Origin: a virus
Taxonomy: Duplodnaviria > Caudoviricetes
Direction: 5' to 3' (one strand)
Virus record (IMG/VR): IMGVR_UViG_3300033518_000070
Coordinates: 1-30,133 of that record
Length of the DNA stretch: 30,133 nucleotides
Both the position numbers and the translations under genes were made by a program. Positions 1-18,285 of this stretch are shown piece after piece. The first letter of the stretch is position 1; every line of letters starts with the position of its first letter. Under the pieces are notes generated by a model, which searched no databases, was not told the origin of the DNA, and saw only the letters and a list, made by a program, of their open reading frames with translations.

Positions 1-561
1 AGTGATGAAAGTTTTGATAGTTTTTTAAATGGATTGAAATCTACTTATGAAGCAAAAATTGAAGCAGAACGCAAAGCAGAGGAAGAAATAATTGCAAAAG
101 AAAAGGCTGATGCAGAAGCAAGGGAACAACAAAGATTAGAAAATGAAAGACTAAAAGCCGAAGCAGAGAAAAGAGAAAAGGAAATTGAAGCGGAGCGAAA
201 AGCTAATGAACAAAAATTAGCAGAAGAAAGAGCAAAAGCAAAAGCCGAAGCAGATAGAATTGAAGCTGAAAATAAAGCAAAATTAAAAGCAGAGCAAGAA
301 GCAAAAGCAAAAATTGAAGCTGAATTACAAGCTAAAAAAGCCGCTGAAATTAAAGCAGAAAATGACCGCAAACAAGCCGAATTAAAAGCAAAAGCCGAAG
401 CAGAAAAAAACGCAAAAGCACCAATAAAAAAACAATTGTCTATTTGGGTTGATGGGTTTTCAATTGCTGAAATTAATGTTGAAAATGAGAAAAAAGCATT
501 GATAAAAGAAAAGTTTGAAGCGTTTAAAAAATGGGCTAAAAATGAAATTGAAAGTATTTAG
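1..561 (+). CDS. Coiled-coil (K/E/A-rich) hypothetical protein, 5'-truncated; gene of cassette A
   Basis: The frame is open from base 1 (SDESFDSFLNGLKSTYEAK...), so the TTG at 34 is probably not the true start. It has long EAEK/AKAEA helical repeats and stops at TAG 559-561. Confidence 0.8.
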   Translation, partial: SDESFDSFLNGLKSTYEAKIEAERKAEEEIIAKEKADAEAREQQRLENERLKAEAEKREKEIEAERKANEQKLAEERAKAKAEADRIEAENKAKLKAEQEAKAKIEAELQAKKAAEIKAENDRKQAELKAKAEAEKNAKAPIKKQLSIWVDGFSIAEINVENEKKALIKEKFEAFKKWAKNEIESI

Positions 562-603
562 TCAAAAGTTTGTCGGTATGGTGGGGTTTCCTGCCATATC
601 GCC

Positions 604-729
604 TAACGTTATGCAGATTGCCGAAGGTGGCGAATACGAAGCACTAAACTTGATATAAAAACAAATGTTAAACCGAAGCACAACAGTTGATATTAGCACC
701 AACCCGCCACTTTTGGCAATGTGCAGTTA
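604..729. repeat. attC-like hairpin element 1
   Basis: TAAC(604)...GTTA(726-729). Arms are TGCAGATTGCCGAAGGTGGCG (612-632) and CGCCACTTTTGGCAATGTGCA (705-725). The loop has AGCAC-like motifs. Confidence 0.85.
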
Positions 730-759
730 TAAGCCGTTTTTCTTCACAAATCTAAAGTA

Positions 760-1083
760 ATGGAATATAAAGAAGCAAAGGAAATTGTTGGCAAATTTAA
801 AGAAGCCATAACCAAACTTGAATGGGACGCAAGCAGCTATTATAGCACTAAAGAAAGATTCCAAAAATTAGAAGATAAAAACAAAGAGCTAAAAACCGAA
901 CTTGATGAAGCAAAGAGATTTAAACGATACTTTAATCTTTTAGCATCTGCTTCAAATGTTGAAATTTGCCAACAATGCGATGGATGCGGTGGCGGATATA
1001 TTGATATGGGTGAACAAGGTGCGGAAGGTTGGGAATGCGATGTTTGTTCAGGTACAGGAATTGTCGATAAGGTGGTGTCCTAA
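760..1083 (+). CDS. Hypothetical protein with C-terminal DnaJ-type CxxCxGxG zinc finger; gene of cassette B
   Basis: CQQCDGCGG...CDVCSGTG after a short coiled coil. The stop overlaps the cassette-end inverted repeat. Confidence 0.8.
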   Translation: MEYKEAKEIVGKFKEAITKLEWDASSYYSTKERFQKLEDKNKELKTELDEAKRFKRYFNLLASASNVEICQQCDGCGGGYIDMGEQGAEGWECDVCSGTGIVDKVVS

Positions 1084-1092
1084 AATGGCTTA

Positions 1093-1216
1093 TAACGATT
1101 TTGCTTTACGCAGGTGGGGATTTCGGAGAACGAATTTTCAACTTAGCACTAAAGCCAAATCGGAGAACTGAACTTGATTTAACCACGTCAACCCCACTTG
1201 CGTAAAGCATTTGTTA
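1093..1216. repeat. attC-like hairpin element 2
   Basis: TAAC(1093)...GTTA(1213-1216). Arms are TGCTTTACGCAGGTGGGG (1102-1119) and CCCCACTTGCGTAAAGCA (1192-1209). Confidence 0.85.
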
Positions 1217-1275
1217 GTGGCTGCCGTTTCACGATAATGCCTTGAGCGGCTTTGTAAAACTCACAATTTAAAAAG

Positions 1276-1548
1276 ATGGAAAATTCATCAGCGTTACAAG
1301 GGTTTACTTACGAAGAAGAAGTAACCAAAAACAAACAGTTAAGAAAAGATACGGATGATATTATTCAGCGTATCAAAGACCTGCCATCAAGCCGTGAAAG
1401 AAGTTTGGCAATTACTAAACTTCAAGAAGGTGTAATGTGGTTAGGAATGGATTTAAAACGACTTGGGGAAGCTAATCCATACCCATCAAGCAAAGATGCT
1501 TCAACGGGAACGGTAATTGAACCAACTGCTGACGGATTAAAGCTGTAA
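1276..1548 (+). CDS. Acb2/Tad1-like helical-hairpin protein (putative anti-defence signal sponge); gene of cassette C
   Basis: The motif IIQRIKDLPSSRERSLAITKLQEGVMWL resembles, from memory, the RE-x-x-AITKLEEA-x-MWL hairpin of Tad1/Acb2-family proteins. 90 aa. Confidence 0.6.
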   Translation: MENSSALQGFTYEEEVTKNKQLRKDTDDIIQRIKDLPSSRERSLAITKLQEGVMWLGMDLKRLGEANPYPSSKDASTGTVIEPTADGLKL

Positions 1549-1599
1549 CAAATTGTGGTCGTAGGATGCTATTTTAGGAGGGTGTCCTACGGTTGCCAC

Positions 1600-1726
1600 T
1601 AACGTTTTGTGGCTTTGCGTTCGTTGGGGATTTCCAGCACTAAAGCCGATTGATAGTACAAATTTTAATTTAAGCACAAATGATTATAGATAGCACTAAA
1701 GCCCCAATGACGCAAAACCACTGTTA
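1600..1726. repeat. attC-like hairpin element 3
   Basis: TAAC(1600)...GTTA(1723-1726). Arms are GTGGCTTTGCGTTCGTTGGGG (1609-1629) and CCCCAATGACGCAAAACCAC (1702-1721). Confidence 0.85.
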
Positions 1727-2369
1727 TACGCTGCCCTTATCGGAGGTTTATAATGAAGATTGCATTGAGGTAATGAAACGATACGAGGACAATTATTTTG
1801 ATATTGCAGTAGTTGACCCACCATACGGATTAGATTTAGCAAATATGAATATGGGTGCAGGTAAAAGTAAAAAGGCATCTAAAATACAAAATAGAAAATG
1901 GAAGCCGAAAGATTGGGATAAAGAAACTCCGACTGCTGAATATTTTGCTGAATTGTTTAGAATATCAAAAAATCAAATCATTTGGGGTGGAAATTACTTT
2001 GACTTACCACCTTGCAAAAATTACATTATTTGGGATAAAGAAATACCCGAAGGACTGTCATTTGCAGATTGTGAAATGGCTTGGACTTCATTTGATAAAG
2101 CACCAAAAATGTTTAGATACTCTGCATATTTGGATAAACAAAGTAAATTTCATCCAACACAAAAGCCTGTTAAATTATATGATTGGATTTTTCACAAATA
2201 CGCTAAAGAAGGAATGAAAATAATTGATACTCATTTAGGCTCTGGCAGTAGTAGAATTTCAGCAAACAGATATAAATTAGACTTTGTCGGTTGTGAAATT
2301 GATGAGGAATACTTTAATAAACAAAATAGAAGATATGCAGATTTCATTTCGCAGACGAGGCTCTTTTAG
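1680..2369 (+). CDS. DNA methyltransferase (N6-adenine/N4-cytosine, beta class); gene of cassette D
   Basis: VYNEDC start strand, catalytic DPPY, HPTQKP, SAM-binding IIDTHLGSGS and GCEID. Motif IV comes before motif I. Confidence 0.92.
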   Translation: MIIDSTKAPMTQNHCYTLPLSEVYNEDCIEVMKRYEDNYFDIAVVDPPYGLDLANMNMGAGKSKKASKIQNRKWKPKDWDKETPTAEYFAELFRISKNQIIWGGNYFDLPPCKNYIIWDKEIPEGLSFADCEMAWTSFDKAPKMFRYSAYLDKQSKFHPTQKPVKLYDWIFHKYAKEGMKIIDTHLGSGSSRISANRYKLDFVGCEIDEEYFNKQNRRYADFISQTRLF

Positions 2370-2400
2370 GGTTGCGTATAACTTGTGGCTATGCGCAATT
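2368..2400. other. Terminal half-site of the cassette array (candidate attI-like site)
   Basis: AGGGTTGCGTATAAC followed by TTGTGGCTATGCG, which resembles the left arm of element 3, but no partner arm or GTTA box follows at the expected distance. Confidence 0.5.
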
Positions 2401-2432
2401 AAACGATTTAGTAAATTATAAATTATAATAAA

Positions 2433-2597
2433 ATGAAACAATATCATATTACTTATCAAAAACAAGAAATACCTATATTATTAGCAGGTGTTACTTTAAT
2501 AGCTATATCAATGGAATATGCGCTAAAAGATTTTAGAACTAAATATCCAAATATTAACCCTTTAACAATTTCTGAACATGAAATATACCAAAATTAA
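2433..2597 (+). CDS. Small hypothetical protein (54 aa, not in the ORF track)
   Basis: ATG at 2433 after an A-rich leader gives MKQYHITYQKQEIPILLAGVTLIAISMEYALKDFRTKYPNINPLTISEHEIYQN*. It overlaps the next start. Confidence 0.6.
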   Translation: MKQYHITYQKQEIPILLAGVTLIAISMEYALKDFRTKYPNINPLTISEHEIYQN

Positions 2598-2883
2598 TAC
2601 AAAAACTAAAAAAGTAGTAGACCAATCAGGATTTTTTAATCCTAATATTGATAAAGATTTAATTATAAAAGATAGATACAAGCACACAATTATTGGTTAT
2701 ATTCTTGGTAATAGAGTAGCTAAATTTAACTTAAAATGGTGCGATTTTCAAACAGTTAAATATATTAACCAAACACAATGCCCAAAAACTAAAAAAAGGT
2801 ATCACGCTTGGCATTGTTGGAAAGAACAAAGTAATAAATATACAACAGTTTTAACAGAATTAATAAAAGAATCGAGGATATAG
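2578..2883 (+). CDS. Hypothetical protein
   Basis: 101-aa basic ORF followed by a terminator. Confidence 0.6.
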   Translation: MKYTKINTKTKKVVDQSGFFNPNIDKDLIIKDRYKHTIIGYILGNRVAKFNLKWCDFQTVKYINQTQCPKTKKRYHAWHCWKEQSNKYTTVLTELIKESRI

Positions 2884-2919
2884 AAACAGTAATAATCAAA
2901 TAATTTGTAATAAATAAAA

Positions 2920-2953
2920 CAAAAAAAAGCACTTTAACGGGTGCTTTTTTTGT
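2920..2953. terminator. Intrinsic terminator, likely bidirectional
   Basis: CAAAAAAAAGCACT-TTAACG-GGTGCTTTTTTTG: a stem with an A-tract before and a T-tract after. Confidence 0.8.
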
Positions 2954-2954
2954 G

Positions 2955-3170
2955 TTTGCAAGGGTACATGAAAACGTAAAATACTGATATTCAACATTTG
3001 CAAGGGTAGAAATAAAAACTTCAAAGTTTAAATGAAAATATTTTTTTTTTTTTTTTTTTGTAAAATATTATTTTATTATCTCATATATTATAGTAATTAT
3101 ACCCTTGTATCTCTTGTTGCACTCTATAAGTCAAGCTGTGACTAGGTTTGCAAAGCAAGACAAGAGTAAG
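2955..3170. other. Candidate replication origin (iteron-like repeats around an AT-rich core)
   Basis: TTTGCAAGGGTA at 2955 and 2997, inverted TACCCTTG at 3100, CAAGAGTA at 3161 and a T19 run at 3041-3059. Non-coding and upstream of the primase-helicase. Confidence 0.45.
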
Positions 3171-3205
3171 TTTGAGTAGAATTTTCTTCTATTGTTGTTT
3201 TTTAC

Positions 3206-3213
3206 TATATTTG
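3206..3213 (+). promoter_or_regulatory. Bacteroidota-type -7 promoter box (TAnnTTTG)
   Basis: TATATTTG ending 15 nt before ATG 3229. Confidence 0.6.
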
Positions 3214-3228
3214 CAAAAAAAAAGAATT

Positions 3229-3780
3229 ATGAAAGCATTTATTTATTTTTTTAAGCACAATGATTTATCACCAATAAAGATTGGGTTTTCGATAAACGGC
3301 TCACTTGATGAAACTTTTAAGCAGTTCAGCACTTATTCACCACATATAGGGGAGATAGTTGGATTTGTCGAGGTTGATAATCCAAACAGGGTTAATAGTT
3401 ATCTACATTTTAAATATTCTAATAAGAAGCTAAATGGTAACTGGTTTGATATTTCAATTGAAGAGGCAAAAAAAGAATTAAATATTATTAGGTCAAAAGA
3501 TGAGATTGAAAAAAGGAATAATTTTGAGTTATTTTTTGCAAAACAACTTGGATTTGTAGAAAAAGAAAATACCCTAGAAAATGCTATATTAACTGTATTG
3601 TCAATCCCTACTGATAATAGTGGTTTATTTTTAACGGCAACAGAAATACAATCAATGATAATTGACAATACAGAATATCCATGCAACAGTCTTAAAATGT
3701 TAGGTATTGAATTAAAAAAACTATTTGGCGCTCCTAAATTTATAGACAGAAATTATAAATATTATGTTGCTTTATTATAA
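3229..3780 (+). CDS. GIY-YIG/T5orf172-like domain protein with a C-terminal domain paralogous to the primase C-terminus
   Basis: FIYFFK...IKIGFS...LHFKY...LNGNWF pattern. The likely start is MKAFIY (3229) rather than TTG 3148, because the promoter box lies between them. Confidence 0.7.
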   Translation: MKAFIYFFKHNDLSPIKIGFSINGSLDETFKQFSTYSPHIGEIVGFVEVDNPNRVNSYLHFKYSNKKLNGNWFDISIEEAKKELNIIRSKDEIEKRNNFELFFAKQLGFVEKENTLENAILTVLSIPTDNSGLFLTATEIQSMIIDNTEYPCNSLKMLGIELKKLFGAPKFIDRNYKYYVALL

Positions 3781-3795
3781 TTTTTAATATATTTG
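3767..3795 (+). promoter_or_regulatory. Bacteroidota-type promoter (-33 TTG / -7 TATATTTG) for the replication operon
   Basis: TTG 3767-3769, an 18-nt spacer, then TATATTTG 3788-3795. Confidence 0.7.
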
Positions 3796-3796
3796 C

Positions 3797-3880
3797 AATA
3801 TGTAGTTTGAGCTTAGCGGTTCAACGCAAGTGGTTCACGTTCCAGCTACATATTCTTTTTATAAACGTGAATAAAAACGT
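3797..3880 (+). promoter_or_regulatory. Structured 5' leader / possible attenuator of the primase operon
   Basis: The stem AATATGTAGTT/AGCTACATATT is followed by CTTTTT. There is an inner hairpin, and TTCACGTT (3834-3841) is complementary to AACGTGAA (3864-3871). Confidence 0.5.
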
Positions 3881-3888
3881 ATTAAAAC

Positions 3889-6015
3889 ATGATTAGTTAT
3901 TGGAGGGGCGTTAAAATCGTAGACAAAGATATTGAGAGAACCTCAATAGATGAATTTTTAGAACGAGTTAAAACGGGTTATTGGAAAGAACAAGTAGAAC
4001 TTGTTAGGTCCGAAGAAAGTAAAGACAGAAGAAAGGTAATCAAAGAAACATTACCAGCGGTTACAATTGGAGGCGTTTTTTCAAAAAGAAGTCAAGATAA
4101 TTTAGAAAATCATTCAGGGTTTATTTGTATTGATGTTGATGATTATACCGATAGAACAAAAATCAATTCAGATGAATATACGTACGCTTCTTTACTTTCA
4201 GTTAGTGGTACTGGTTTTGCGGTTATATGTAAGATTGACCCTTCAAAACATAAAGAATCTTATAATTTTTTATCCGAGCATTATTTTAAGACATACGGTA
4301 TAGTCGTTGATGAAGCTCCAAAAAATGTAGCATCCGCTAGGTTTGTATCTTATGACCCTTATTTATATTTGAATATTAAATCAAAGAAATCAAAAAATAA
4401 AGTTGAAAAGAAAAAACAAGTTCCGAATTTATCAATATTAGTTCCTAAAAGTGATATTTGTGATTTAGTTAACCAAGTTAATAAATCAGTAGTTGATGAA
4501 TATTCGGATTATTTGGCTTTATCTTTTTCAATTGCGTGCGGATTTGGTGAAAGTGGACGAGAATATTTTTATAAAATTTGTTCATTTTCTGAAAAGTTTA
4601 ATTTTGAACAATCAAAAAAGCAGTATGATATAGCATTAAAAAGAAACGGTACAGGTGTAACGGTAGGGACGTTTTATTATTTTTTAAAACAAGGAGGCGT
4701 TGACCTTTCAAGTTATTCAGCAAATAAGGCTATTTCTAATGTGAAGTTAGCGAAGCGAATGAACACGCCAAAAAAAGAAATAGTAAGAGAGCTATCAAAA
4801 GAAAAAAACATTGATGAAGAGCAGGCTTTAGAAATAGTTGAGGAGGTTTATAGTAGAAATGATTTAGATATACGCAATGATTCAGGAGCTGAAAACATGA
4901 TTGTAAATGTGTCTAATTATATACTAAAAAAATATAAAATAAGAAAAAATATAATAACTAGAAAATATGAATGGGACGGAGTTCCTATGTATGACAAAGA
5001 ATTTAACACGGTTTTTTTAGATTGCAGAATGATATTTGATGACAAGTCAATAACCTTTGACATTGTTAATAGAATAATACAATCAACTGCAATACCTGAA
5101 TATAATCCATTTTTTGAATATATCGAAGCTAATAAATTCAGAACATCGACAGGAAACATTGAAAAATTATGTAGGACTATTGAAAGTAACACTGCAATAA
5201 AAGACAGATTTATAAGGAAATGGCTGTTAAGTATTATAGCGTGCATATATGGTCATCCAGTTCGTTCCGTACTTGCATTGACAGGCGGACAAAACACGGG
5301 TAAGACAGAATGGTTTAGACGATTATTGCCTAGTGCATTACAGCCGTATTATTCTGAATCTAATTTAGATAGGGGAAAAGATGATGAACTTTTAATGTCT
5401 GAAAAATTAATTGTTATGGATGATGAAATGGGCGGTAAGTCAAAAAGTGATGAAAAGAAATTTAAGGAATTAACGTCAAAAAATTACTTTTCATTGCGTG
5501 CCGCTTATGGTCGTTATAATGAGGATTATAAGCGTTTAGCCTTATTATGTGGCACTTCAAATGACCATCAGTTAATAAATGACAGTACTGGTAATACAAG
5601 AATTTTGCCAATAGATGTTAATTATATAAATCACGATTTATATAATTCAATAGACAAAGATGAGCTGTTTATTGAATTACATAGAGCTTATTCAAATGGG
5701 GAAATATATCAACTGGAGGTAACAGAACTTGAAATATTAAACGAAGTAGGCAAACAGTTTGAGAGCATTCCATTTGAAAGAGAATTAATAAATAAATTCT
5801 TCAGCATACCAAAAGAAGACGGCGAATGGTTAACGGCAACCGAAATAAAAGATTTAATCGAAACGCATTCAAGACAGCGAATTTTGTCAATGAAAAAACT
5901 AGGTTCGGAGTTAAAGCAAATTTTTGGCAATCCTAGATTTAAAGACAGAACGAATAAATATTATATTCAAAGAAAAGCCGAAATTATCAAATCAATAAAC
6001 CCCTTTGATATATGA
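3889..6015 (+). CDS. Primase-helicase (BT4734-like/VirE N-terminal domain, PriCT-2-like region, VirE/VapE P-loop helicase)
   Basis: LPAVTIGGVF...HSGFICIDVD and RFVSYDP; VTVGTFYY; Walker A GGQNTGKT; Walker B LIVMDDE; CGTSN; DSTGNTR. Confidence 0.88.
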   Translation: MISYWRGVKIVDKDIERTSIDEFLERVKTGYWKEQVELVRSEESKDRRKVIKETLPAVTIGGVFSKRSQDNLENHSGFICIDVDDYTDRTKINSDEYTYASLLSVSGTGFAVICKIDPSKHKESYNFLSEHYFKTYGIVVDEAPKNVASARFVSYDPYLYLNIKSKKSKNKVEKKKQVPNLSILVPKSDICDLVNQVNKSVVDEYSDYLALSFSIACGFGESGREYFYKICSFSEKFNFEQSKKQYDIALKRNGTGVTVGTFYYFLKQGGVDLSSYSANKAISNVKLAKRMNTPKKEIVRELSKEKNIDEEQALEIVEEVYSRNDLDIRNDSGAENMIVNVSNYILKKYKIRKNIITRKYEWDGVPMYDKEFNTVFLDCRMIFDDKSITFDIVNRIIQSTAIPEYNPFFEYIEANKFRTSTGNIEKLCRTIESNTAIKDRFIRKWLLSIIACIYGHPVRSVLALTGGQNTGKTEWFRRLLPSALQPYYSESNLDRGKDDELLMSEKLIVMDDEMGGKSKSDEKKFKELTSKNYFSLRAAYGRYNEDYKRLALLCGTSNDHQLINDSTGNTRILPIDVNYINHDLYNSIDKDELFIELHRAYSNGEIYQLEVTELEILNEVGKQFESIPFERELINKFFSIPKEDGEWLTATEIKDLIETHSRQRILSMKKLGSELKQIFGNPRFKDRTNKYYIQRKAEIIKSINPFDI

Positions 6016-7436
6016 TTAATTTATATGAATATCAAAAAGATTATATAGAAAGTATTCGATATAGTTTCATTAATGGAAAAAAGCGTGTTATTTTATGCGC
6101 TCCAACAGGAAGTGGTAAAACTGTTATTTTTAGTTATATTACAAAACAAACTATTGAACGTCATAAAAGAATTTTGATTTTAACGGATAGAAAAGAATTA
6201 TTTTCGCAGTCTAGTGGTTCACTTATTAGAATGAATTTGGAACCGTCAGAAATAAAGCCAAATTTAAAGGTAGATTTTAGTAAAAATCTTTATATTTCTA
6301 TGGTTCAAACTTTCATGCGTAGAATTAATAAACCTGAATATCGTGACTTACTTTATTCAATGGATTTAATAATTATTGACGAAGCTCACAAGTCAATATT
6401 TGATAAATTATTTGATTATATTTCAAACAACACTTATGTAATTGGAGCTACGGCAACACCGTACAGATATGGTAAACAATATACCTTGGAGAAATTTTAT
6501 GATGACATTATACAAGTAATTGACACACCCGAATTAATATTAAAAAATAAATTATCTAATTGTGTTTCATACGGTGTAAAAGTTGACCTCACAGGAATAA
6601 AAACAAAGGGCGGTGATTATGATGAGAAAACAATGGGTGAAAAATTTAGCGAAATAAAGTTATTTCATGGGGTTTATGAGAATTATATTAGAATATGTAA
6701 AGGTAAAAAAGCAATATTATTCGCTCCAAATGTAGAAAGCAGTAAAGAATTAGTTAATGACTGGATTTTAAAGGGGTTGAATATAAAGCACGTTGATTGT
6801 TATATGACTGATATAGAAAGAAAATCAATTATAGAATGGTTTACAAACACAAAAGGGGCTATTATTTCAAATTATGGAATATTAACAACTGGCTTTGATG
6901 TTCCCGATATTGAGGTAGTTATATTGTATAGGGCTACTAAATCCCTACCTTTGTTTTTACAAATGTCTGGTAGAGGTTCAAGAATATCAAAAGACAAAAA
7001 AAGATTTTATATTCTTGATTTCGGTAATAACATAAAGCGTCATAATTATTGGGAACATCCAAGAAAATGGACATTAAAAAAGAAAGAAAGCAAGCAAGGT
7101 GAAGCAGGAATAAAAGAATGTCCAAAATGCGCATATCTTATGTATTCGTCAATCATGGATTGTCCTGAATGTGGATATAAGTTTAAGAAATTAGCAAAGG
7201 AAAAAGAATCTCAAATTATTACTGATTTAGTTTTAATGCCTGGATTTGAAATACAAAAACTAGCCGAAAAATCTAGTATAAAAGATTTAATTTTAATACA
7301 ACAATCAAAAGGATATTCAAAGAGTTGGATTTATCACTACTTAAAAAGTAAAGACGATTTCATTCAATATGGTAAATTAATGGGTTATAACTATAAATGG
7401 GCATTAAGACAAATTAATTTTAGAAAAATATGTTAA
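6012..7436 (+). CDS. Superfamily 2 DEAH helicase with C-terminal zinc ribbon
   Basis: APTGSGKT, IIIDEAH, GATATP, LTTGFDVP, QMSGRGSR and CPKC...CPECG. Confidence 0.92.
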   Translation: MINLYEYQKDYIESIRYSFINGKKRVILCAPTGSGKTVIFSYITKQTIERHKRILILTDRKELFSQSSGSLIRMNLEPSEIKPNLKVDFSKNLYISMVQTFMRRINKPEYRDLLYSMDLIIIDEAHKSIFDKLFDYISNNTYVIGATATPYRYGKQYTLEKFYDDIIQVIDTPELILKNKLSNCVSYGVKVDLTGIKTKGGDYDEKTMGEKFSEIKLFHGVYENYIRICKGKKAILFAPNVESSKELVNDWILKGLNIKHVDCYMTDIERKSIIEWFTNTKGAIISNYGILTTGFDVPDIEVVILYRATKSLPLFLQMSGRGSRISKDKKRFYILDFGNNIKRHNYWEHPRKWTLKKKESKQGEAGIKECPKCAYLMYSSIMDCPECGYKFKKLAKEKESQIITDLVLMPGFEIQKLAEKSSIKDLILIQQSKGYSKSWIYHYLKSKDDFIQYGKLMGYNYKWALRQINFRKIC

Positions 7437-7777
7437 CAGAGTCAGCGATACAGCAAGAATGCGTAATGTATTTACGTAATAATTACGGATTGAAACACCA
7501 TAAACCTAGAATATTAATATTCAGCGTGCCCAATGATGGGCGTTCAGCAGTCGAACAAATGAGAAAAAAGGCAACGGGATTAATGGCAGGCGTTTCTGAC
7601 ACCGTAATTGATACGGGTTCTATAATTATTTATTGCGAGTTTAAAGATTATAGAGGAGTTCAATCACCAAAACAAAAGGAATTTCAATCTCATGTTGAAT
7701 CTTTGGGGCGGTTATATTGGGTTATTCGTTCACTTGAAGAATTTATAGAGCATTTGAATAGGTATAATGTTATTTAG
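7430..7777 (+). CDS. VRR-NUC domain nuclease
   Basis: ESAIQ...FSVPN...GLMAGVSD...CEFK...QSPKQKEF...YWVIRS. Confidence 0.85.
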   Translation: MLTESAIQQECVMYLRNNYGLKHHKPRILIFSVPNDGRSAVEQMRKKATGLMAGVSDTVIDTGSIIIYCEFKDYRGVQSPKQKEFQSHVESLGRLYWVIRSLEEFIEHLNRYNVI

Positions 7778-7835
7778 AATGTATATAAATAACGTTTTTT
7801 TTAATATAAAGGTGCTTTATATTATATTATTATAT

Positions 7836-7843
7836 TACATTTG
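7836..7843 (+). promoter_or_regulatory. Bacteroidota-type -7 promoter box
   Basis: TACATTTG in the AT-rich gap before ATG 7882. Confidence 0.65.
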
Positions 7844-7848
7844 TAACA

Positions 7849-7881
7849 CAAAACAAAACAAAACAAAACAAAACAAAACAA
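7849..7881 (+). repeat. (CAAAA)6+ microsatellite in a 5' UTR
   Basis: Six perfect CAAAA units at 7849-7878, then CAA running into the ATG. Confidence 0.9.
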
Positions 7882-8100
7882 ATGGATGTGATTAATAAAA
7901 TAGTAAAAATAGAGCTTCATCAACAATGTATTGAAATACTAGAGGCTATAAATTTTTTTAAAAAAATGACTGAACACACTAAAATAAATTTCAATTCTAG
8001 TGAATTTTTTATTAAAAAGATGAGCCATAAAAACGAAATTTATAATAAGTGTATAAATAGATTAGAATTAAGATATAAAAAAATAGTAGAACAATTATGA
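7882..8100 (+). CDS. Hypothetical protein
   Basis: 72-aa ORF, ATGA-coupled to the next gene. Confidence 0.65.
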   Translation: MDVINKIVKIELHQQCIEILEAINFFKKMTEHTKINFNSSEFFIKKMSHKNEIYNKCINRLELRYKKIVEQL

Positions 8101-8423
8101 AAACAGTTAGCGAGATACTAGAATTAGGCAAATTAAAATACAATGACAGTAGTTTTGATGAAAAAACTTTTAGCGTTTATATTGATGTAAATAATGTCAA
8201 TTATAGTTGTTTAGTGATTAATTTAGATGTTGATATTTCTCCAATATTTACAGATGATGTACCTTTGTTTACAGTTTTATCATGTGAATTTCAAGATGAA
8301 TTTGGAGATTTACATGAATTAGTTTGGGTTGAATCAGATGAGGTAAAAATAATAACACAAACACAAGATATTTTTTCAAAAGGGTATTGGGCTGATGAAT
8401 TAGCATATTATTTTAATTATTAA
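8097..8423 (+). CDS. Hypothetical acidic protein
   Basis: 108-aa D/E-rich ORF within the operon. Confidence 0.65.
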   Translation: MKTVSEILELGKLKYNDSSFDEKTFSVYIDVNNVNYSCLVINLDVDISPIFTDDVPLFTVLSCEFQDEFGDLHELVWVESDEVKIITQTQDIFSKGYWADELAYYFNY

Positions 8424-8434
8424 AAAAAAACAAA

Positions 8435-8998
8435 ATGGAATTAGAAATAGATTTAGGAATAACAATAGTACCAAAATCAGACCAATTAAATGCGGATGAT
8501 TTAATAAGTGGGTCTAAAACAATAAAGATACGGGATATAAAGCAAACGGATAGCGAAACTCAACCTATAAGCATATACTTTGACGGTGATAATAATAAGC
8601 CATACAAGCCGTCTAAGGGTATGCGCAGGGCGTTGGTACAAATTTGGGGTGTTAATGGACTTGACTATATTGGGAGAAGTTTAACTATTTTCAGGGATGA
8701 GACTATTAAATTTTCGGGGTTAGATGTTGGTGGTATTGTAATAAGTCACGCTAGTAATATAACAGAGCCAAAAAGGATAATAACAACGGTATCGAGAGGA
8801 AAAAAGAAATTAATAATTATAACGCCATTGAATCACGAAGAAACACAGATTGTTGATTTAACGCCTTATTTAGCTAAATTAAGCGACTGTAAGACACTTG
8901 AAGAGTTAAAAGGTGTATATACTTCATTTTCAAAAGAAGTGCAGAATAAAGCCGTTATAATAGCAAAAAAAGACGAACTAAAAAATGAACTGAAATGA
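8435..8998 (+). CDS. Phage protein next to the exonuclease (candidate ssDNA-binding/annealing protein)
   Basis: IVPKSDQLNADDLI...PYKPSKGMRR...GRSLTIFRD...GGIVISH. ATGA-coupled to the YqaJ exonuclease. The function is inferred from position only. Confidence 0.5.
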   Translation: MELEIDLGITIVPKSDQLNADDLISGSKTIKIRDIKQTDSETQPISIYFDGDNNKPYKPSKGMRRALVQIWGVNGLDYIGRSLTIFRDETIKFSGLDVGGIVISHASNITEPKRIITTVSRGKKKLIIITPLNHEETQIVDLTPYLAKLSDCKTLEELKGVYTSFSKEVQNKAVIIAKKDELKNELK

Positions 8999-9639
8999 CT
9001 ATACATGATGTTGAACAGGGTAGCGAAATGTGGCACGAGTTAAGAAATGCTAAAATAGGCGGTACAAGGTCAAAAGGATTATTTGTAAAATCTGACACGC
9101 TTCTTTTTGAATTATTAGCAGAATATACCGAATCTTATCAATCTAATGAAGATGATTATATGAGTGATGACATGGCTAGGGGTATTTTTTTAGAACCCAT
9201 AGCGAGGGCTCAAATAGAATTATATACAGGTTTAAAATTCAACCAAATTGGGTATATTATATCGGACATTCCTAATTTAGCTATAAGTCCAGACGGATTA
9301 ACAGAATGCAAAACAATAGCTTGTGAAATAAAATGTCCTGGTGCAAAAAAACACGTACAAACGTGTATTGAGGACGAAATACCGTTAGACAATATACATC
9401 AATGCTTGCACTATTTTACTGTAATTGACACACTAAAAGAGTTGTATTTTGTTTCATACAGAGAAGAGGCATTAAAAAAATTATTTGTAAAAAAAATAAC
9501 TTTGGATTCAGAAATAAACTTAGGAACAAAATCACGACCATTAATAAAACCAGTAACAGAGTGGGTAAAAATAGCAAAAGAAGAAGCTGCGTTAATAAAC
9601 AAACAGCTAAATGAATTAGTAATTAAATTAACATTTTAA
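8995..9639 (+). CDS. YqaJ / lambda-exonuclease family nuclease
   Basis: EQGSEMWHELR, MARGIFLEPIAR, ISPDGL and CEIKCP. Confidence 0.9.
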   Translation: MTIHDVEQGSEMWHELRNAKIGGTRSKGLFVKSDTLLFELLAEYTESYQSNEDDYMSDDMARGIFLEPIARAQIELYTGLKFNQIGYIISDIPNLAISPDGLTECKTIACEIKCPGAKKHVQTCIEDEIPLDNIHQCLHYFTVIDTLKELYFVSYREEALKKLFVKKITLDSEINLGTKSRPLIKPVTEWVKIAKEEAALINKQLNELVIKLTF

Positions 9640-9641
9640 AT

Positions 9642-9920
9642 ATGTATCAAATAAAAGGCGAGTTAATAAATATTAGCGAAACGGAGCAAAAAACAGAAAA
9701 TTTTTCATTAAGAAATTTTGTAATAAAAACAGAGGGACAATATTCGCAAGAAATACCATTCCAATTAGCGAATAAAAATTGTGATATAATAAACGCCTAC
9801 CAATTAGGGAGTGTGGTAACTATACACTTTAATTTAAGGGGTCGCTCATGGACTTCACCACATGGCGAAAAAAAATGGTTTGCAACTAATGAATGTTTTA
9901 AAATTGATAATAATTTCTAA
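9642..9920 (+). CDS. DUF3127-like OB-fold single-stranded DNA-binding protein
   Basis: QIKGELI...FVIKTEGQYSQEIPFQ...VTIHFNLRGRSW...KWF...CFKI. Confidence 0.75.
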   Translation: MYQIKGELINISETEQKTENFSLRNFVIKTEGQYSQEIPFQLANKNCDIINAYQLGSVVTIHFNLRGRSWTSPHGEKKWFATNECFKIDNNF

Positions 9921-10226
9921 ATGACTGTACTAGATTTTTCAAAACAATTTGGGATTACTGAATATAAAGCCTTGCGATGTTCGGAGCTTATTTTAAAAAG
10001 TGAATCAGTTTTTTTTATTCAAAAAGATTTAGATATAACAATAGGAATGATTAATAAAATCATAAATAATTTAATAATATATCCATACAATAGAAGTCGT
10101 TTAATGCACAATATTAGTATGCAATATTACGAAAATGAGCAAGTAATTTTTGATAGTATTGAACTTATTTACAAACCCGAAATGTTAAAAGGTGCAGAAC
10201 TTGAAATATTTAATAATATAGACTAA
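9921..10226 (+). CDS. Hypothetical protein
   Basis: 101-aa ORF abutting both neighbours. Confidence 0.6.
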   Translation: MTVLDFSKQFGITEYKALRCSELILKSESVFFIQKDLDITIGMINKIINNLIIYPYNRSRLMHNISMQYYENEQVIFDSIELIYKPEMLKGAELEIFNNID

Positions 10227-10228
10227 AA

Positions 10229-10474
10229 ATGATAAAAAATAAAGATTCAGAAATTTACAAAATAGTAAACATTGAAAGAGTAGGTGCAGGATTTTCAAAA
10301 AAGGGAGAATTAAACAAGTCCTTAAATAGGCAAGCAACTTGTTTTTGGCGAACATTACGCAAGGGTAGTACAAAGTTTGAAGATTTAATCGAAATTTGTG
10401 ATTTACTTGAATTAGAAATAATAATAAGAAATAACAAAACTCATACTGAATATCATATTAACGGCTTTAAATAA
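10229..10474 (+). CDS. Small HTH-like (XRE/Cro-like) DNA-binding protein
   Basis: FSKKGELNKSLNRQATCFWRTLRKGSTKFEDLIEICDLLELEI resembles an XRE helix pattern. Confidence 0.5.
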   Translation: MIKNKDSEIYKIVNIERVGAGFSKKGELNKSLNRQATCFWRTLRKGSTKFEDLIEICDLLELEIIIRNNKTHTEYHINGFK

Positions 10475-10663
10475 ATGGAAATTCCCGATTGGTTAATAGA
10501 AAAAATTAATAATAATGACAAGTATTTAACACATATTGAGTTCGGAAAGTTAGATTTTTTTTATAAGAAAATAACAGGATTAAAGCTTAAAAAGAAATGT
10601 GATAATTGTATTGCAGATGCTTATATTGTTATTAGAATATATTTAAAAAACAAAACTAAATGA
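10475..10663 (+). CDS. Hypothetical protein (CxxC)
   Basis: 62-aa ORF containing KKCDNCI, coupled to the next gene. Confidence 0.55.
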   Translation: MEIPDWLIEKINNNDKYLTHIEFGKLDFFYKKITGLKLKKKCDNCIADAYIVIRIYLKNKTK

Positions 10664-11208
10664 ATAAAAACAGAGCTATAATAGATATTGAAACAGGGGG
10701 CTTTAATATTTATAATAGTGGTATTGTTGAAATAGGAATTGTTTTTTTTGATGAAAAATATAATATAATTGATAAATATGAAACATTAATAAAACCATAT
10801 AAAAAACATAATTCCATTGATTTAATGGAATATTCAAAACGTGCTGAATATATTCATGGGCATTCAATAGAAAAAATACAATTATTAGGAAAAGAATGTA
10901 ATATCGTATGTAATGAAATAATAAGTAAAATCAAATATAATAACCCCATACAATTAATAGGTCATAATTTAATAAAATTTGATTTGCCTAGAATTATTAA
11001 TTTCTTTGAACGGTTTACAAATGAAAGCACGGATTTTTTATTTATAAATAATTTAGATACCATTAACCTATCTAAGGAGTTGTTAAATTCAGATAGTTAC
11101 TCACTTGAATACCTTTGTAATGGTTTGAATTTAGCGCATGAAAACAAGCATTCTGCCATGGGTGACTGTTGCGCTACACTTGAACTGCTTAAATATTTAG
11201 AACGCTAA
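10660..11208 (+). CDS. DEDDh 3'-5' exonuclease (DnaQ-like)
   Basis: IIDIETGG, IGHNLIKFDL, LDT and HSAMGDC. Confidence 0.9.
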   Translation: MNKNRAIIDIETGGFNIYNSGIVEIGIVFFDEKYNIIDKYETLIKPYKKHNSIDLMEYSKRAEYIHGHSIEKIQLLGKECNIVCNEIISKIKYNNPIQLIGHNLIKFDLPRIINFFERFTNESTDFLFINNLDTINLSKELLNSDSYSLEYLCNGLNLAHENKHSAMGDCCATLELLKYLER

Positions 11209-11218
11209 TTTTTTTTAT

Positions 11219-11226
11219 TATATTTG
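11219..11226 (+). promoter_or_regulatory. Bacteroidota-type -7 promoter box ahead of the packaging operon
   Basis: TATATTTG ending 23 nt before ATG 11250. Confidence 0.6.
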
Positions 11227-11249
11227 TACTAAAAATAACACTTCAAAAA

Positions 11250-11486
11250 ATGAAAAAAATACTAAAAGAAACTTTAAAAATATTTATTATAATATTAGCT
11301 TCAATATTGGTTTTTTTAGATAGGCTTATATGCTCAATATTGGTTTTTAAAGATATGCCCTCAATTTATGAAATAAAGAAATTTAAACATGAACGTGAAG
11401 CAATGTCAAGAAGATATATTGTATATTTAATAATTCTTTTAGTTTTTGTATTAGTTAAATTTATTAAACATTTAATAATTAAATAA
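11250..11486 (+). CDS. Small two-TM membrane protein
   Basis: Hydrophobic stretches IFIIILASILVFL and IVYLIILLVFVLV. Confidence 0.6.
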   Translation: MKKILKETLKIFIIILASILVFLDRLICSILVFKDMPSIYEIKKFKHEREAMSRRYIVYLIILLVFVLVKFIKHLIIK

Positions 11487-12016
11487 TGGCACCACCTAAA
11501 GGCAGTCAATTTTGGAAAAGACGAACAAAGCACGGAAAAGAAAAACTTTTTGCAACAAAAGAACTTTTGCTAGATGCTAGTTATGAATATTTTGAATATA
11601 TGGATTCAAATAAATGGGTTATTAACGAAATTACAAAAAAAATCAATGTTAATACACCTGATGATATAACAAAGAAGAAAAAACCAAAGTCACAGCCATA
11701 CAGCATTGAGGGTCTTTGTTTGTTTCTTGGTTGTTCGTTTTCTTGGTGGCGAAATTCAAAACTTAGATTTAAAAATAATCCAACTAATGAAACGGAATCA
11801 GAGCTATTGGAAGCAATGGAGCAAATAGAGTTAATAGTTTTTGTTAATCAATTCAATGGCGCATCGATAGGTGAATTTGACCCACGCATAATGACTTCAA
11901 AACTTGGCTTAATTACAAAAACTGAAAACACAAATTTTAATGTAAATTCAGAAACCGAGCCACTAAGTACGGACGAAATTAAATCTTTAAAAAAGAAATT
12001 AGAAGAAGATTATTAA
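11486..12016 (+). CDS. terS: Terminase small subunit (P22 gp3-like)
   Basis: MAPPKGSQFWKRRTKHG...YFEY...PYSIEGLCLFLG...QFNGASIGEF...SKLGL, directly upstream of TerL. Confidence 0.8.
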   Translation: MAPPKGSQFWKRRTKHGKEKLFATKELLLDASYEYFEYMDSNKWVINEITKKINVNTPDDITKKKKPKSQPYSIEGLCLFLGCSFSWWRNSKLRFKNNPTNETESELLEAMEQIELIVFVNQFNGASIGEFDPRIMTSKLGLITKTENTNFNVNSETEPLSTDEIKSLKKKLEEDY

Positions 12017-12024
12017 TTTTAAAA

Positions 12025-13494
12025 ATGGAACTTTCTGAAATTGATATAATAAGAGCCGAAACGCTTTATAGTAGTTTGTTTTTTAGTAAATACCATTTTA
12101 AACATAGATATAATAAAAAATTTGTAGTTAATTGGCATCACGAATTAATATGTGAATATTTAGACAAAGTTTTTAAAGGTGAGATTAAAAAACTAGCCAT
12201 ACGAATAGCACCACGATACGGAAAAACAGAGCTTGCAGTAATTAATTTTATATCAATGGGGTTGGCATTAAACCCGTCTTCAAAATTTATACATTTAAGT
12301 TACTCTAGTGATTTAGCGTTGGATAATTCCGAAGAGATAAGAGATTTTGTACAAACAACTGAATATAATAGGCTATATCCTTGGGTTGCAATTGATAAAG
12401 CATCCACGGCAAAAAAGAAATGGTACACTACAAAAGGCGGTGGAGTTTATGCCACATCAACAGGCGGACAAATTACAGGTTTTGGAGCTGGAGAAATGGA
12501 CATCGAAGACGAAGAGTTAAATAAAGAATTAATTGAACTAAGCGAACTACAAAAAAACAAATTTTCGGGTGCAATCGTAATAGATGACCCTTTAAAACCT
12601 GATGATGCAGATAGTGATATAAAAAGGGAGCGAATAAATGAAAGATTTGAAAACACGATACGAAGTAGAACAAACTCAAGGAATACCCCAATAATAATAA
12701 TAGGACAGGCAGTACACGATAGAGATTTAATAGGATATTTAATGAATACAGAGCCGAATGAATGGACTTTATTAAGTATTCCTGCTATTAGTAAAGATGA
12801 AAATTTTAACGATGTAGCATTATGGTCATTTAAGCATACACTTGAAGAGCTTTATAGGATTAAAGAAAACAGCCCAAGAACTTTTGATTCACAATACCAG
12901 CAAGACCCTAAGGACTTACTAGGATTGCTTATTCCGTTTGATTCATTGAAATTCAGTAAAATAACAAATGAGCCTATTTATTCAATGGCTTTTGCTGACC
13001 CTGCAGATGAGGGGGGCGATAAATTGAGTGTTATATTTATTAAAATTTATTTTGAAGATGATAGGTTACTTGTATATGTTAATGATGTCATACATAATAA
13101 CAACGGTATTGAAGCTAATACAACAAGAATAATAGATAAAATAAATGAACATAATGTATCGGAAATATTTATAGAATCAAACGGTCTAGGTTTAGCACTT
13201 ATTTTGGGAGTTAAAAGGTTAGCGAATTATAATACAAAAATAAATCCTATAACATCACGAGAACCAAAAACGGTGCGCATATTATCAGGATTTGAAACTG
13301 TTATAAAACATTTTGTATTTAATGAAGATTATAAAAAAAATATTGAATTTTCTCATTATATTAGTGATTTAACAAAGTTTAAACGTGATAGCACAAACAC
13401 GCACAAAGCTGATGCTATGGACGTAACTACATTCGCTTCAAATGTTATAAAAATAAAATTCAAAGAATTACTTTTTAATAACATAAAAAAATAA
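12025..13494 (+). CDS. terL: Terminase large subunit
   Basis: Walker A IAPRYGKT, Walker B IVIDDPLK, SQYQQDP, nuclease residues FADPADEGGD and IESN, and HKADAMD. Confidence 0.93.
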   Translation: MELSEIDIIRAETLYSSLFFSKYHFKHRYNKKFVVNWHHELICEYLDKVFKGEIKKLAIRIAPRYGKTELAVINFISMGLALNPSSKFIHLSYSSDLALDNSEEIRDFVQTTEYNRLYPWVAIDKASTAKKKWYTTKGGGVYATSTGGQITGFGAGEMDIEDEELNKELIELSELQKNKFSGAIVIDDPLKPDDADSDIKRERINERFENTIRSRTNSRNTPIIIIGQAVHDRDLIGYLMNTEPNEWTLLSIPAISKDENFNDVALWSFKHTLEELYRIKENSPRTFDSQYQQDPKDLLGLLIPFDSLKFSKITNEPIYSMAFADPADEGGDKLSVIFIKIYFEDDRLLVYVNDVIHNNNGIEANTTRIIDKINEHNVSEIFIESNGLGLALILGVKRLANYNTKINPITSREPKTVRILSGFETVIKHFVFNEDYKKNIEFSHYISDLTKFKRDSTNTHKADAMDVTTFASNVIKIKFKELLFNNIKK

Positions 13495-13543
13495 TAAATT
13501 CGCACCCTATATAAAAAAAAATGTTTTATATAAAAAAAATAAC

Positions 13544-13551
13544 TATTTTTG
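13544..13551 (+). promoter_or_regulatory. Possible -7 promoter box before the portal gene
   Basis: TATTTTTG ending 20 nt before ATG 13572, with an inverted repeat TATATAAAA/TTTTATATA at 13508-13532. Confidence 0.4.
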
Positions 13552-13571
13552 AATAAAATATTTCAAAAAAA

Positions 13572-14825
13572 ATGGGGTTTTGGGATTTTGGTAAAAAAGT
13601 AAATACAACGCCAAAAAATAATTGGGTTCAAGTTGATGCCAACGGTAAATTTTACCATTATATAAATCAAATGTTATCAAGTGGCGTTTATCAAAAATTC
13701 GACCCTTTACGCCCCGTTTACTTTGCTTCCACAATAGCCGAAATTTTCGCACCGATTGATATTATTTCTGACAGGGTTGCATCTTGCAAATTTAATATAT
13801 ATAATAAAAACACTGATAAAATAGTTGAGAATTTACCTAATAATTTAGTAAGATTATTAAAAAACCCTAATCCATTTAACTCATTAAGTGAATTAATTTA
13901 TCAAATACAATTTAGTGAATTAGCAAGCGGAGGGAGTTTTGTTTTAACTAAAATGCCATCAACTTTTAAAACAAAAACAGTTGATAGGATTAGTAATATT
14001 TGGGTATTAAATCCTGATACTGTAGAAATAAAAATAAAAAAATCAATCCCTAATCCCTATTTAATTAGTGATATTTCGGAATTAATTGAAATGTATAATA
14101 CTCATTGGTTAATTGATATGTCTTTAAATACTGATGAGGTTAATTATAATTCAATTTCGCAAATAGATGAAAATTTAAAAACTAAAACGCCACTATTATC
14201 TGTAACAAGAAATATAAACAATCTATTGGCTGTTTATTCTGCTAGATTTAATGTGTATGACAAAAATGGGGTTGCAGGTATAGTTTTTAAAGATGACAAA
14301 GGAGCTTCAACTATTAGCGAGCAAATAAACCCAATTACAAGGGATAGAGTATTAGAAGATTTAAACAATATGGAGGGTATTGTTGGAGATAAAATGTTTA
14401 CGGGCATATCTTCTTTCCCTTTGGGTTTTATTGAAACATTAGGTAAAATAAAAGATTTAGAACCGTTTAAAGAAGCCGAAGTAGATTCAATGGCAATAGC
14501 TAGTATTTTTGGCGTTTCAACTGAATTGATTTATAGCGGTGGTTCATCTACATTTTCAAACAAACGAGATGCAGAGAAGCATTTATGGCAAAATATAATA
14601 AATCCTTATGCTGAAGATATATCCAAAACTTTAACAAAAATATTTTATCTTCCAGAGGATTGGGAATTTAGAAAGAGTACAGATAATATAGAAATATTAC
14701 AATCGGACAGAAAAACACAATTAGAGGCGGACACTATTGAATTGTCAAATATCAAAATTCTTCAAGAATTGGGGATGTCAACTGAACAAATAAATAAAAA
14801 ATTAACTCAATGGATTCAAAAATAG
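13572..14825 (+). CDS. Portal protein (HK97 family)
   Basis: LLKNPNPF, IWVLNPDTV, IASIFGV and STFSN, positioned between TerL and the protease. Confidence 0.88.
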   Translation: MGFWDFGKKVNTTPKNNWVQVDANGKFYHYINQMLSSGVYQKFDPLRPVYFASTIAEIFAPIDIISDRVASCKFNIYNKNTDKIVENLPNNLVRLLKNPNPFNSLSELIYQIQFSELASGGSFVLTKMPSTFKTKTVDRISNIWVLNPDTVEIKIKKSIPNPYLISDISELIEMYNTHWLIDMSLNTDEVNYNSISQIDENLKTKTPLLSVTRNINNLLAVYSARFNVYDKNGVAGIVFKDDKGASTISEQINPITRDRVLEDLNNMEGIVGDKMFTGISSFPLGFIETLGKIKDLEPFKEAEVDSMAIASIFGVSTELIYSGGSSTFSNKRDAEKHLWQNIINPYAEDISKTLTKIFYLPEDWEFRKSTDNIEILQSDRKTQLEADTIELSNIKILQELGMSTEQINKKLTQWIQK

Positions 14826-15490
14826 AAGAAATAAAAAAAGAACGAGGAGGCTCAAATAGTTTTTTTTCAGTTCCTTTAGATGGCGAACGTTCTAAATTTA
14901 ACGAGGGTGACAGGCTTATAAAAGGTTATGCAATAGTTTGGGGTTCAAAGAATGATTATAATGAAATCGTGATAAAAGGAGCTTGTACTAATAGCATAAA
15001 TGCAAGGGGGGTTAATGGTTCGGGAAAAAATAAAATAGTTATTTTAAAACAACATAGACAATCAGAGCCTATTGGTAATATTACAAAGTTATTAGAGGAT
15101 GATTACGGCTTGTATTTTGAAGCTGAAATAATAACAGGCACAACAGCATCAGAAGAGGCTTTATCAGAGGTTAGGCAAGGTGTTTTGAGACAATTATCAT
15201 ACGGTTTTAACTATGTATGGGATAAAGTAGAATGGGATGAGGTTAATGATGCTTTAATACTTCGTGAAATAAAACTATTTGAAATTTCACTAGTTACATT
15301 TTCAAGTGATGAAAATGCCCAATTAAGAAGTTTTAACGATTACCAAAAAAAAGAAATATTAAAAGTTTTTAAACATCAAGAGATTGAAAATTTAAGAGGT
15401 TTACTAAACTCAATTAATACGGATAGCCGTGCCGAACACTGTCCTAAACAACAAATAAATGCGAATATTAATAAAGTAAAATTTTTTTAA
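14810..15490 (+). CDS. HK97-family prohead protease
   Basis: IKGYAIVWG, LKQH...PIG, EDDYGLYFEA, LSYGF and LFEISLVT. Confidence 0.92.
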   Translation: MDSKIEEIKKERGGSNSFFSVPLDGERSKFNEGDRLIKGYAIVWGSKNDYNEIVIKGACTNSINARGVNGSGKNKIVILKQHRQSEPIGNITKLLEDDYGLYFEAEIITGTTASEEALSEVRQGVLRQLSYGFNYVWDKVEWDEVNDALILREIKLFEISLVTFSSDENAQLRSFNDYQKKEILKVFKHQEIENLRGLLNSINTDSRAEHCPKQQINANINKVKFF

Positions 15491-15493
15491 AAA

Positions 15494-16762: not shown

Positions 16763-16764
16763 CG

Positions 16765-16797
16765 AAAAACCGCCTAAATTAATAGGCGGTTAATTTT
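16765..16797 (+). terminator. Hairpin / likely terminator after the capsid gene
   Basis: AACCGCCTA-AATTAA-TAGGCGGTT followed by AATTTT. Confidence 0.65.
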
Positions 16798-16815
16798 AAC
16801 ATAAAAATAAAAAAT

Positions 16816-17055
16816 ATGCCAGTATTTAAAATTGCAAAAACAGAAAAAAAAGTAGGTAAGCAAGTAACATTTAACAAAGAAAGTGATTACGTTGCTGTTC
16901 GATTGATGAAAAATGACAAACCGATTGGAGATGTAAAATTGTTGCATCATATTCAAGCTGAAAAATTAATCGAAAAGAAAAAAGCTATAAAGGTAACAAA
17001 TCAAAACATTGAGGAGGTTACACCAGTAGTATCTACAAAAGTGATTGATAAATAA
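16816..17055 (+). CDS. Small basic head-region protein
   Basis: 79-aa ORF after the capsid gene. Confidence 0.6.
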   Translation: MPVFKIAKTEKKVGKQVTFNKESDYVAVRLMKNDKPIGDVKLLHHIQAEKLIEKKKAIKVTNQNIEEVTPVVSTKVIDK

Positions 17056-17072
17056 AAAAAAATCGGGTTTTA

Positions 17073-18259: not shown

Positions 18260-18285
18260 ATATTAATAATTAAAATTTTAAAAAA

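Follow-up and report, generated by a model that had tools for sequence, protein, structure and literature searches.

Four genes, here called A to D, lie in a row at the start of a viral record, separated by hairpins that run from TAAC to GTTA, and they raise the question of whether such genes are mobile cassettes and, if so, what kind of system moves them. The window, by which we mean the whole stretch of 30,133 nucleotides that was analyzed, is estimated to be 90% complete (the collection's own estimate). Its replication, head, and tail genes all lie on the + strand, and positions 3889 to 29495 form an ordinary tailed-phage backbone with primase, helicase, RecE-like exonuclease, terminase, portal, capsid, and tape measure genes. 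No tyrosine recombinase/integrase (PF00589) was found in the window, that is, in the assembled 90% of the phage, and no transposase family had a match there. A scan for sigma-70 promoters and terminators was uninformative (14 versus 11.7 expected).

Paired ends and the site class

The sequence-only reading of this locus had claimed that each gene carries its own 15-base inverted ends, the sequence that starts at GTTA being complementary to the TAAC end downstream of the same gene. The ends of B, C, and D (Table 1) do pair at 14, 13, and 13 of 15 positions, respectively, and each left end pairs with the right end of its own gene rather than with the TAAC end of its own hairpin (scores of 6, 7, and 9). 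The nine noncognate end pairings reach 6 to 9 of 15. The finer details were also read correctly: a G·T pair stands at position 11 in B, C, and D, with T·T at position 10 in the last two, and the stop codons of B and D overlap the right ends by 2 bases. Against a background of actual left and right ends taken from unrelated cassettes, the probability of a chance match at at least 9 of the 11 variable positions is 0.0024 and at at least 10 is 9e-5, giving a joint chance for the three pairs of about 5e-10. The paired ends are real and far beyond chance. The end-pair score alone is not specific, because a loose GTTA..TAAC scan at 12/15 or better returned 11 further AT-rich pairs elsewhere in the window; the hairpin detector found exactly the three hairpins of Table 1 in the 30 kb and none elsewhere.

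Table 1. Positions of the cassette features in the window
Feature	Position	Strand	Remark
Gene A, 3' part	1..561	+	Cargo of cassette A; 345 aa in L297
Cassette A right end	593..607	+	Matching left end outside the window, present in L297/L315
Hairpin heading cassette B	604..729	+	TAAC..GTTA, 126 nt; presumed exchange point TAAC 604-607
Cassette B left 15-base end	726..740	+	Pairs with 1082-1096
Gene B	760..1083	+	107 aa
Cassette B right end	1082..1096	+	L297 departs from the window directly after 1096
Hairpin heading cassette C	1093..1216	+	124 nt
Cassette C left end	1213..1227	+	Pairs with 1589-1603
Gene C	1276..1548	+	90 aa; Acb2/Tad1 hairpin domain
Cassette C right end	1589..1603	+	Pairs with 1213-1227
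Hairpin heading cassette D	1600..1726	+	127 nt; contains in-frame gene D ATGs at 1680 and 1707
Gene D	1680..2369	+	229 aa; N6/N4 DNA methyltransferase, PF01555
Cassette D left end	1723..1737	+	Gene D frame passes through the left end
Cassette D right end	2368..2382	+	No hairpin after cassette D
Putative terminal docking site (attI equivalent)	2379..2398	+	Resembles a hairpin-arm start; other cassette joined in G053

Cassette A begins upstream of the window, and its left end had been predicted from its right end. The predicted sequence is present in two other loci, L297 and L315, which match window positions 1 to 607 at 99.8% and 99.5%, respectively, and which both reach further upstream, with a hairpin before gene A. 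It has G at position 11 and a score of 14/15 against 593-607, and at positions 1889-1875 (minus strand) of L297 it is the sole match to the predicted pattern in that locus. Upstream of cassette A, positions 2021 to 2529 (minus strand) of L297 consist of tandem copies of about 116 bases, with repeated peptide units in two short open reading frames (ORFs).

Searches with the hairpin pattern recovered at least 121 viral stretches. Because many loci were found with patterns from this window, the loci compared below are not a random sample. The viral matches listed contain 113 unique pairs of neighboring sites. In 75 of these, at least 8 of the 11 variable positions match, a level reached by the two ends of one hairpin in 2 of 113 comparisons and by 1.4% of random pairs; the other 38 fall below it, and many of these are taken to span missed sites. 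The left and right ends thus covary within genes in other arrays, as the earlier reading had expected. For positions 11 to 16, 76 pairs were picked on positions 5 to 9 only. Position 11 was mismatched in 75 of them (G·T in 63), positions 12 to 15 matched in 57 to 68, and position 16 matched in 9, so that pairing ends at base 15. Since this set shows both the 15-base length and the fixed mismatch, we regard them as properties of the class, and the suggestion of a distinct site class holds beyond this window.

The hairpins themselves (n = 307) have arms that covary in register, with 5 bases unpaired after TAAC versus 1 before GTTA, and conserved G, T, A, and T residues at fixed places. On one arm, attC sites have two or three extrahelical bases (G and T, six pairs apart). 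In the hairpins here, one T, 96% conserved, lies 15 bases before GTTA, where the pairing register shifts; a matching G was not seen. Of the two strands, the one with the hairpin first gives the better fold in 251 of 307 bare hairpins and in 302 of the 307 junctions that were rebuilt, the latter figure being partly built in by the definition of polarity. Circularizing the cassettes in silico extended the stem, as anticipated, and the gain over the same sites in their array context was 10 to 12 kcal/mol. No Rfam family reached its gathering score, either in the window or in 15 array-rich loci; there were only chance E-value matches. The Flavo-1 RNA motif (RF01705) was considered as the identity of the hairpin and rejected: there was no Rfam match, its published alignment rows look unrelated, and it is a different motif (PMC2864571; PMC9723704).

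Cassette polarity and exchange at the locus

The ends had been likened to those of integron cassettes. This held insofar as they extend the stem in the circle; it failed as to which gene owns the hairpin, which belongs to the downstream gene and not to the upstream one. Cassettes at least 85% identical were compared in 47 pairs. In 23 of them, the upstream 100 bases are retained and the downstream flank differs, and none shows the reverse; both flanks are retained in 2 and changed in 22, in some cases with bodies that are 98% identical. A separate comparison pointed in the same direction. Relatives of each window hairpin resemble it in the sequence that follows GTTA and are unrelated before TAAC. 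The frame of gene D begins inside its upstream hairpin, and no hairpin lies downstream of D. The unit is therefore hairpin, left end, gene, and right end, the hairpin traveling with the gene that follows it, and exchange would accordingly fall in the TAAC at the 5' side of the hairpin. The 22 pairs in which both flanks changed show that hairpin bodies are replaced in some other way as well. Folding was tried as a test of polarity and discarded, as circles of B and C built in the classical order, with the gene before the hairpin, reach equally good folds in silico; it is silent on polarity because either circle extends the stem, and the contexts decide.

Of the 221 viral cassettes with a clear ORF, 217 have the gene on the folding strand. 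In cellular loci, among the matches listed, the gene lies opposite the folding strand in 53 of 56 such cassettes, and the folding strand keeps G at position 11 in 60 of 63. The G thus follows the folding strand in both settings, which argues for pairing as DNA rather than RNA. GC skew is in favor of the folding strand for 101 of 115 viral loci and against it for 28 of 32 cellular loci (among the matches listed), a pattern that would fit a lagging- versus a leading-strand template (PMC8946536); this skew is confounded with coding-strand bias and is not counted as evidence.

Two close relatives carry different arrays. L297 is 99.9% identical to window positions 1 to 1096 and then has a different hairpin directly after the TAAC of B, while its structural genes are only 65 to 77% identical to those of the window. 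Conversely, G053 is 99.93% identical to positions 2372 to 20000 (17.6 kb), and its array holds two other cassettes, one with DUF4326 and one with a different methylase, both with ends pairing at 13/15, before the same terminal site. The terminal site at 2379 is thus a fixed site joined to different cassettes on one backbone. Contigs of the sequencing runs X1, X2, and X3 join other sequence at 608, 2372, and 2382; in X1 and X3, a hairpin start follows 2382 and other hairpins follow 608. One X1 contig covers 579 to 2382, X2 contigs cover 112 to 1663 and 1634 to 2401, and both the D junction and the G053 junction are present in X1 and in X2. Depth is 16 over the array and 21 over the backbone in X1, and 46 to 52 and 55 to 59, respectively, in X2. 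By these comparisons, the locus is part of a cassette system with apparently recent exchange.

Four runs are known as contigs only, and the window may itself derive from X1 or X2. Their contigs contain no excised-circle (go-back) joint, an absence that is uninformative in contigs. The lack of cover at 2460 to 3150 in the runs is a filter hole, the backbone being covered further on. Contigs also break near two intergenic features of the backbone, a run of about 20 T at 3038 to 3059 and short A-rich repeats at 7850 to 7885. In X1 and X2, the left arm of the hairpin between A and B has five other letters (613 to 621) and folds at -12.0 versus -18.9; it resembles the start of another hairpin type, as in a putative chimeric site.

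The terminal motif (2379-2398) was found in nine viral loci (L470 to L478, two of which share one context). In eight of the nine, a matching left end (12/15 or better) lies upstream; the next two ORFs are 105 aa or shorter, so that no integrase follows the motif. It is distinct from the AT-rich sites found before integrase genes and represents a second candidate type of docking site.

Cargo, hosts, and candidate recombinase

The product of gene A is coiled-coil-like, with no family match, and that of gene B has two CxxC motifs near the C terminus and weak PHROG matches only. Gene C matches PF24729, the Acb2/Tad1 hairpin domain (38.4 bits versus a cut-off of 27), and is predicted to encode an anti-defense nucleotide sponge. 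Together with the DNA methyltransferase of gene D, the predicted cargo fits a role in counter-defense. A copy of gene C that is 90% identical, leader included, occurs in an unrelated phage (window 1234-1548; L001 4951-5255), where it stops at the stop codon, without cassette ends, between structural genes. Ends matching at 12/15 or better were found in 0 of 80 viral loci with relatives of gene C, and the gene C family is therefore not generally a cassette. The two ends of cassette C, with its leader and trailer (1213-1275 and 1549-1603), are common to loci L280, L281, and L282, which have unrelated ORFs inside. One cassette frame would thus hold four different genes (C and those of the three loci), an observation that bears on the origin of cassettes.

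An estimated 930 or so stored genome stretches match the hairpin pattern; the 123 listed are mostly from Bacteroidota. The methylase of gene D is nearest to those of Flavobacterium phages (among the 40 of 57 matches listed). Because of this closeness, and because the hairpin pattern comes mainly from Bacteroidota genomes among the matches listed, the host of the phage is likely a member of the Bacteroidota. Matches in cultured phages are confined to genes C and D, and none covers the hairpins (40 listed of 57).

Among the matches listed, the same sites occur in Bacteroidota chromosomes, mostly in the classical orientation. The window hairpins also match sites on Riemerella, Myroides, and Empedobacter plasmids, at 69 to 73% for the Riemerella sites. 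On the Riemerella plasmid L486, ere(D) and catB (4661-6115 and 8531-9372) lie between ends that pair at 14/15 and have G at position 11. These two cassettes are hairpin first, so the classical orientation in hosts is a tendency and not a rule. A related hairpin lies within a row of aadS, blaMYO-1, blaOXA, and GNAT genes on the Myroides plasmid L487 (2122-5609), where no end pair at 13/15 or better was found.

A search for PF00589 in 50 array-bearing viral records found it in 10 and not in the other 40. Nine of the 10 are of one short Xer-like type, co-oriented with the cassettes and starting, as judged by eye, some 45 to 55 bases after the TAAC right end. These short recombinases have two domains; eight are of 265 to 289 aa and one, with an internal loss, of 199 aa. 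The residues R, K, HxxR, H, and Y are conserved in the eight that were aligned. Seven were scanned and fell below all NCBIfam cut-offs. The best model was NF040815 (XerA), at 182 to 206 bits versus a cut-off of 220, and the IntI model TIGR02249 matched in two stretches, at 140 to 176 bits versus 265. In the region of the IntI insertion, the gap is 23 residues versus 66 in IntI4, about 43 shorter. This insertion has been called essential for integron function (PMC8138268), and its region has been tied to extrahelical-base contacts (PMC3053210). The position of the genes suggests that the short recombinase family acts on these sites. In four of five host genomes, the best recombinase relative had no site within 1.5 kb. 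Longer relatives, of 368 to 455 aa, precede sites in the cellular loci L375, L385, and L398; in L375, the polarity of the site is clear, and genes and integrase run in one direction.

Proposed mechanism, alternatives, and known systems

We consider it probable that A to D are mobile cassettes of an integron-like system shared by Bacteroidota and their phages and that the ends form, in the excised circle, the recombinase-bound outer stem of the folded site. The paired ends, their covariation, the link between hairpin and gene, the alternative junctions at TAAC, and the nearby Xer-like gene in other phages are what was observed; strand use, cut site, enzyme, insertion order, and recombination itself belong to the model. 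In this model, the coding strand would fold into a single-stranded site, and the short Xer-like recombinase, supplied in trans, would bind the 15-base outer stem and the inner stem and cut TAA^C, by analogy with the 5'-AAC-3' of attC. Hairpin-first cassettes would be excised as circles or inserted, new ones entering at the terminal site (2379-2398), in which case D would be the newest. The G·T at position 11, which becomes C·A in the opposite strand, may help to choose the strand, and a phage without an integrase gene would borrow the enzyme from its host or from another phage. Points against this model are the 40 of 50 viral records, and the window itself, that have no PF00589, and the short enzymes that lack the IntI insertion. 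The 22 cassette pairs with both flanks changed, the worse-folding variant of the A-B hairpin in X1 and X2, the 38 low-scoring adjacent pairs, and the four host genomes whose best relative has no site nearby also count against it.

The alternative of ordinary double-stranded Xer-type recombination, in which the 15-base ends are binding arms and no single-stranded hairpin forms, is unlikely. It would account for neighboring enzymes that score best against XerA, XerD, and XerC models and lack the IntI insertion, and the arm ending in TAA may resemble a dif arm. However, the arms of a double-stranded site flank a spacer of 6 to 8 bases, whereas the ends of the circle are about 120 bases apart and meet only if the strand folds, and the hairpin arms covary in register across 307 sites.

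An integrase-less array (CALIN) of ordinary attC cassettes, served by a canonical host IntI and with genes that are simply antisense, is quite improbable. Read from the other strand, the layout is indeed core site, cassette, and hairpin with a constant AAC triplet, as in attC, and the site length of 124 to 127 nt falls inside the range of 57 to 141. The spacers, however, are of 5 versus 1 bases and not 5 to 6 on each arm, and the outer pairing spans 15 bases with a fixed mismatch and not a 7-base consensus. The enzymes adjacent to arrays lie far under the IntI cut-off and skip the residues noted above, and IntegronFinder has detected very few integrons in Bacteroidetes (PMC9024848).

Pairing of the ends in messenger RNA, with G·U at position 11, for RNA processing or an RNA-based movement of genes, we hold to be very improbable. 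The better-folding strand is the coding strand in nearly all phage cassettes, and the copy of gene C with a leader and without ends in an unrelated phage could be read in the same way. Yet the folding strand is antisense in most cellular cassettes and keeps its G at position 11 there, the junctions fall at one DNA tetramer with a recombinase gene at array ends, and no Rfam family matched. Small nonautonomous transposons with terminal inverted repeats, or differing arrays that are assembly chimeras, are hardly credible: the 15-base inverted ends do look like terminal repeats and assemblies do break at these sites, but each gene has ends of its own that covary with one another, insertions are at TAAC and not at varied targets, the window has no transposase match, and contigs of two runs cross the array and hold both junctions.

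Beyond the cassette system proposed for this locus, we lean slightly towards a second kind of integron in Bacteroidota and their phages, built on hairpins with 15-base arms and an insertion-less Xer-like enzyme. Hosts would carry the cassettes, including those with resistance genes, in the classical orientation, and phages would carry anti-defense genes back to front, while phages that have no enzyme, such as this one, would go on exchanging cassettes in trans by way of a docking site that imitates the arm of a hairpin. If this is true, the cassette system serves an entire phylum together with its phages and would escape standard tools, phages trade counter-defense genes through cassettes (here an Acb2/Tad1-type sponge and methylases), and hairpin recombination is possible in an enzyme that lacks the IntI insertion. 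In Riemerella, resistance genes are reported to be taken up independently of homology; ere(D) and catB are bracketed by paired ends on a plasmid there, and the site class may be the explanation. The reuse of cassette frames with unrelated genes would give a handle on how cassettes are made. The locus offers ready substrates, namely, three complete cassettes, a docking site, and a near-identical phage pair with different arrays.

A literature search, outside of which subscription journals mostly lay, returned no description of this cassette system, only an attC-like hairpin in Riemerella; no such arrays are described in the excerpts of PMC8618304, PMC8946536, and PMC13616975. In Riemerella anatipestifer, aph(3')-IVb is reported to integrate independently of homology; its ends are fixed, and it is followed by a 140-bp attC-like hairpin (PMC13148043). 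That element has the gene-then-hairpin order, and the excerpted account identifies no enzyme, end pairing, or array; compared by description only, its hairpin is likely of the same site class as those of the window. Like the arrays here, CALINs hold several cassette sites without a nearby integrase gene (PMC9024848), but the sites here are not canonical attC. A CALIN is defined by at least two sites that the attC covariance model recognizes; the window has three hairpin sites and no PF00589. The neighboring enzymes are like the Xer-type simple tyrosine recombinases and their "integron-like" subgroup (PMC8138268) in size, in having two domains, and in catalytic residues; in contrast, they score under every curated cut-off and lie at the ends of phage cassette arrays, and they are not known dimer resolvases.

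Integrons are bacterial stores of resistance and anti-phage genes and have been reported to be rare in Bacteroidetes (PMC9024848). As in class 1 and Vibrio integrons, the cassettes here mostly hold a single gene and are separated by imperfect hairpins, a constant AAC/GTT triplet stands at the presumed crossover, the ends of one cassette are complementary, folding is strand biased, and the site length lies within the attC range. The attC site has a 7-base core and 5 to 6 spacer bases on each arm (PMC5027507). Where that core is RYYYAAC/GTTRRRY, positions 5 to 7 are variable here, pairing continues to base 15, and position 11 is mismatched; the spacers are of 5 versus 1 bases. In integrons, the site lies downstream of the gene and the noncoding strand recombines, as a single strand cut at A^C and with resolution by replication, whereas in these phages the hairpin comes first and the genes point toward the docking site. 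IntI has the insertion, and the array-associated enzymes do not. Although it works in the manner of an integron, we do not class the system as one, because it departs from integrons in three defining traits, namely, site geometry, orientation, and the IntI insertion. The attI site of integrons nevertheless has its parallel in the fixed site at 2379, which likewise takes different cassettes.
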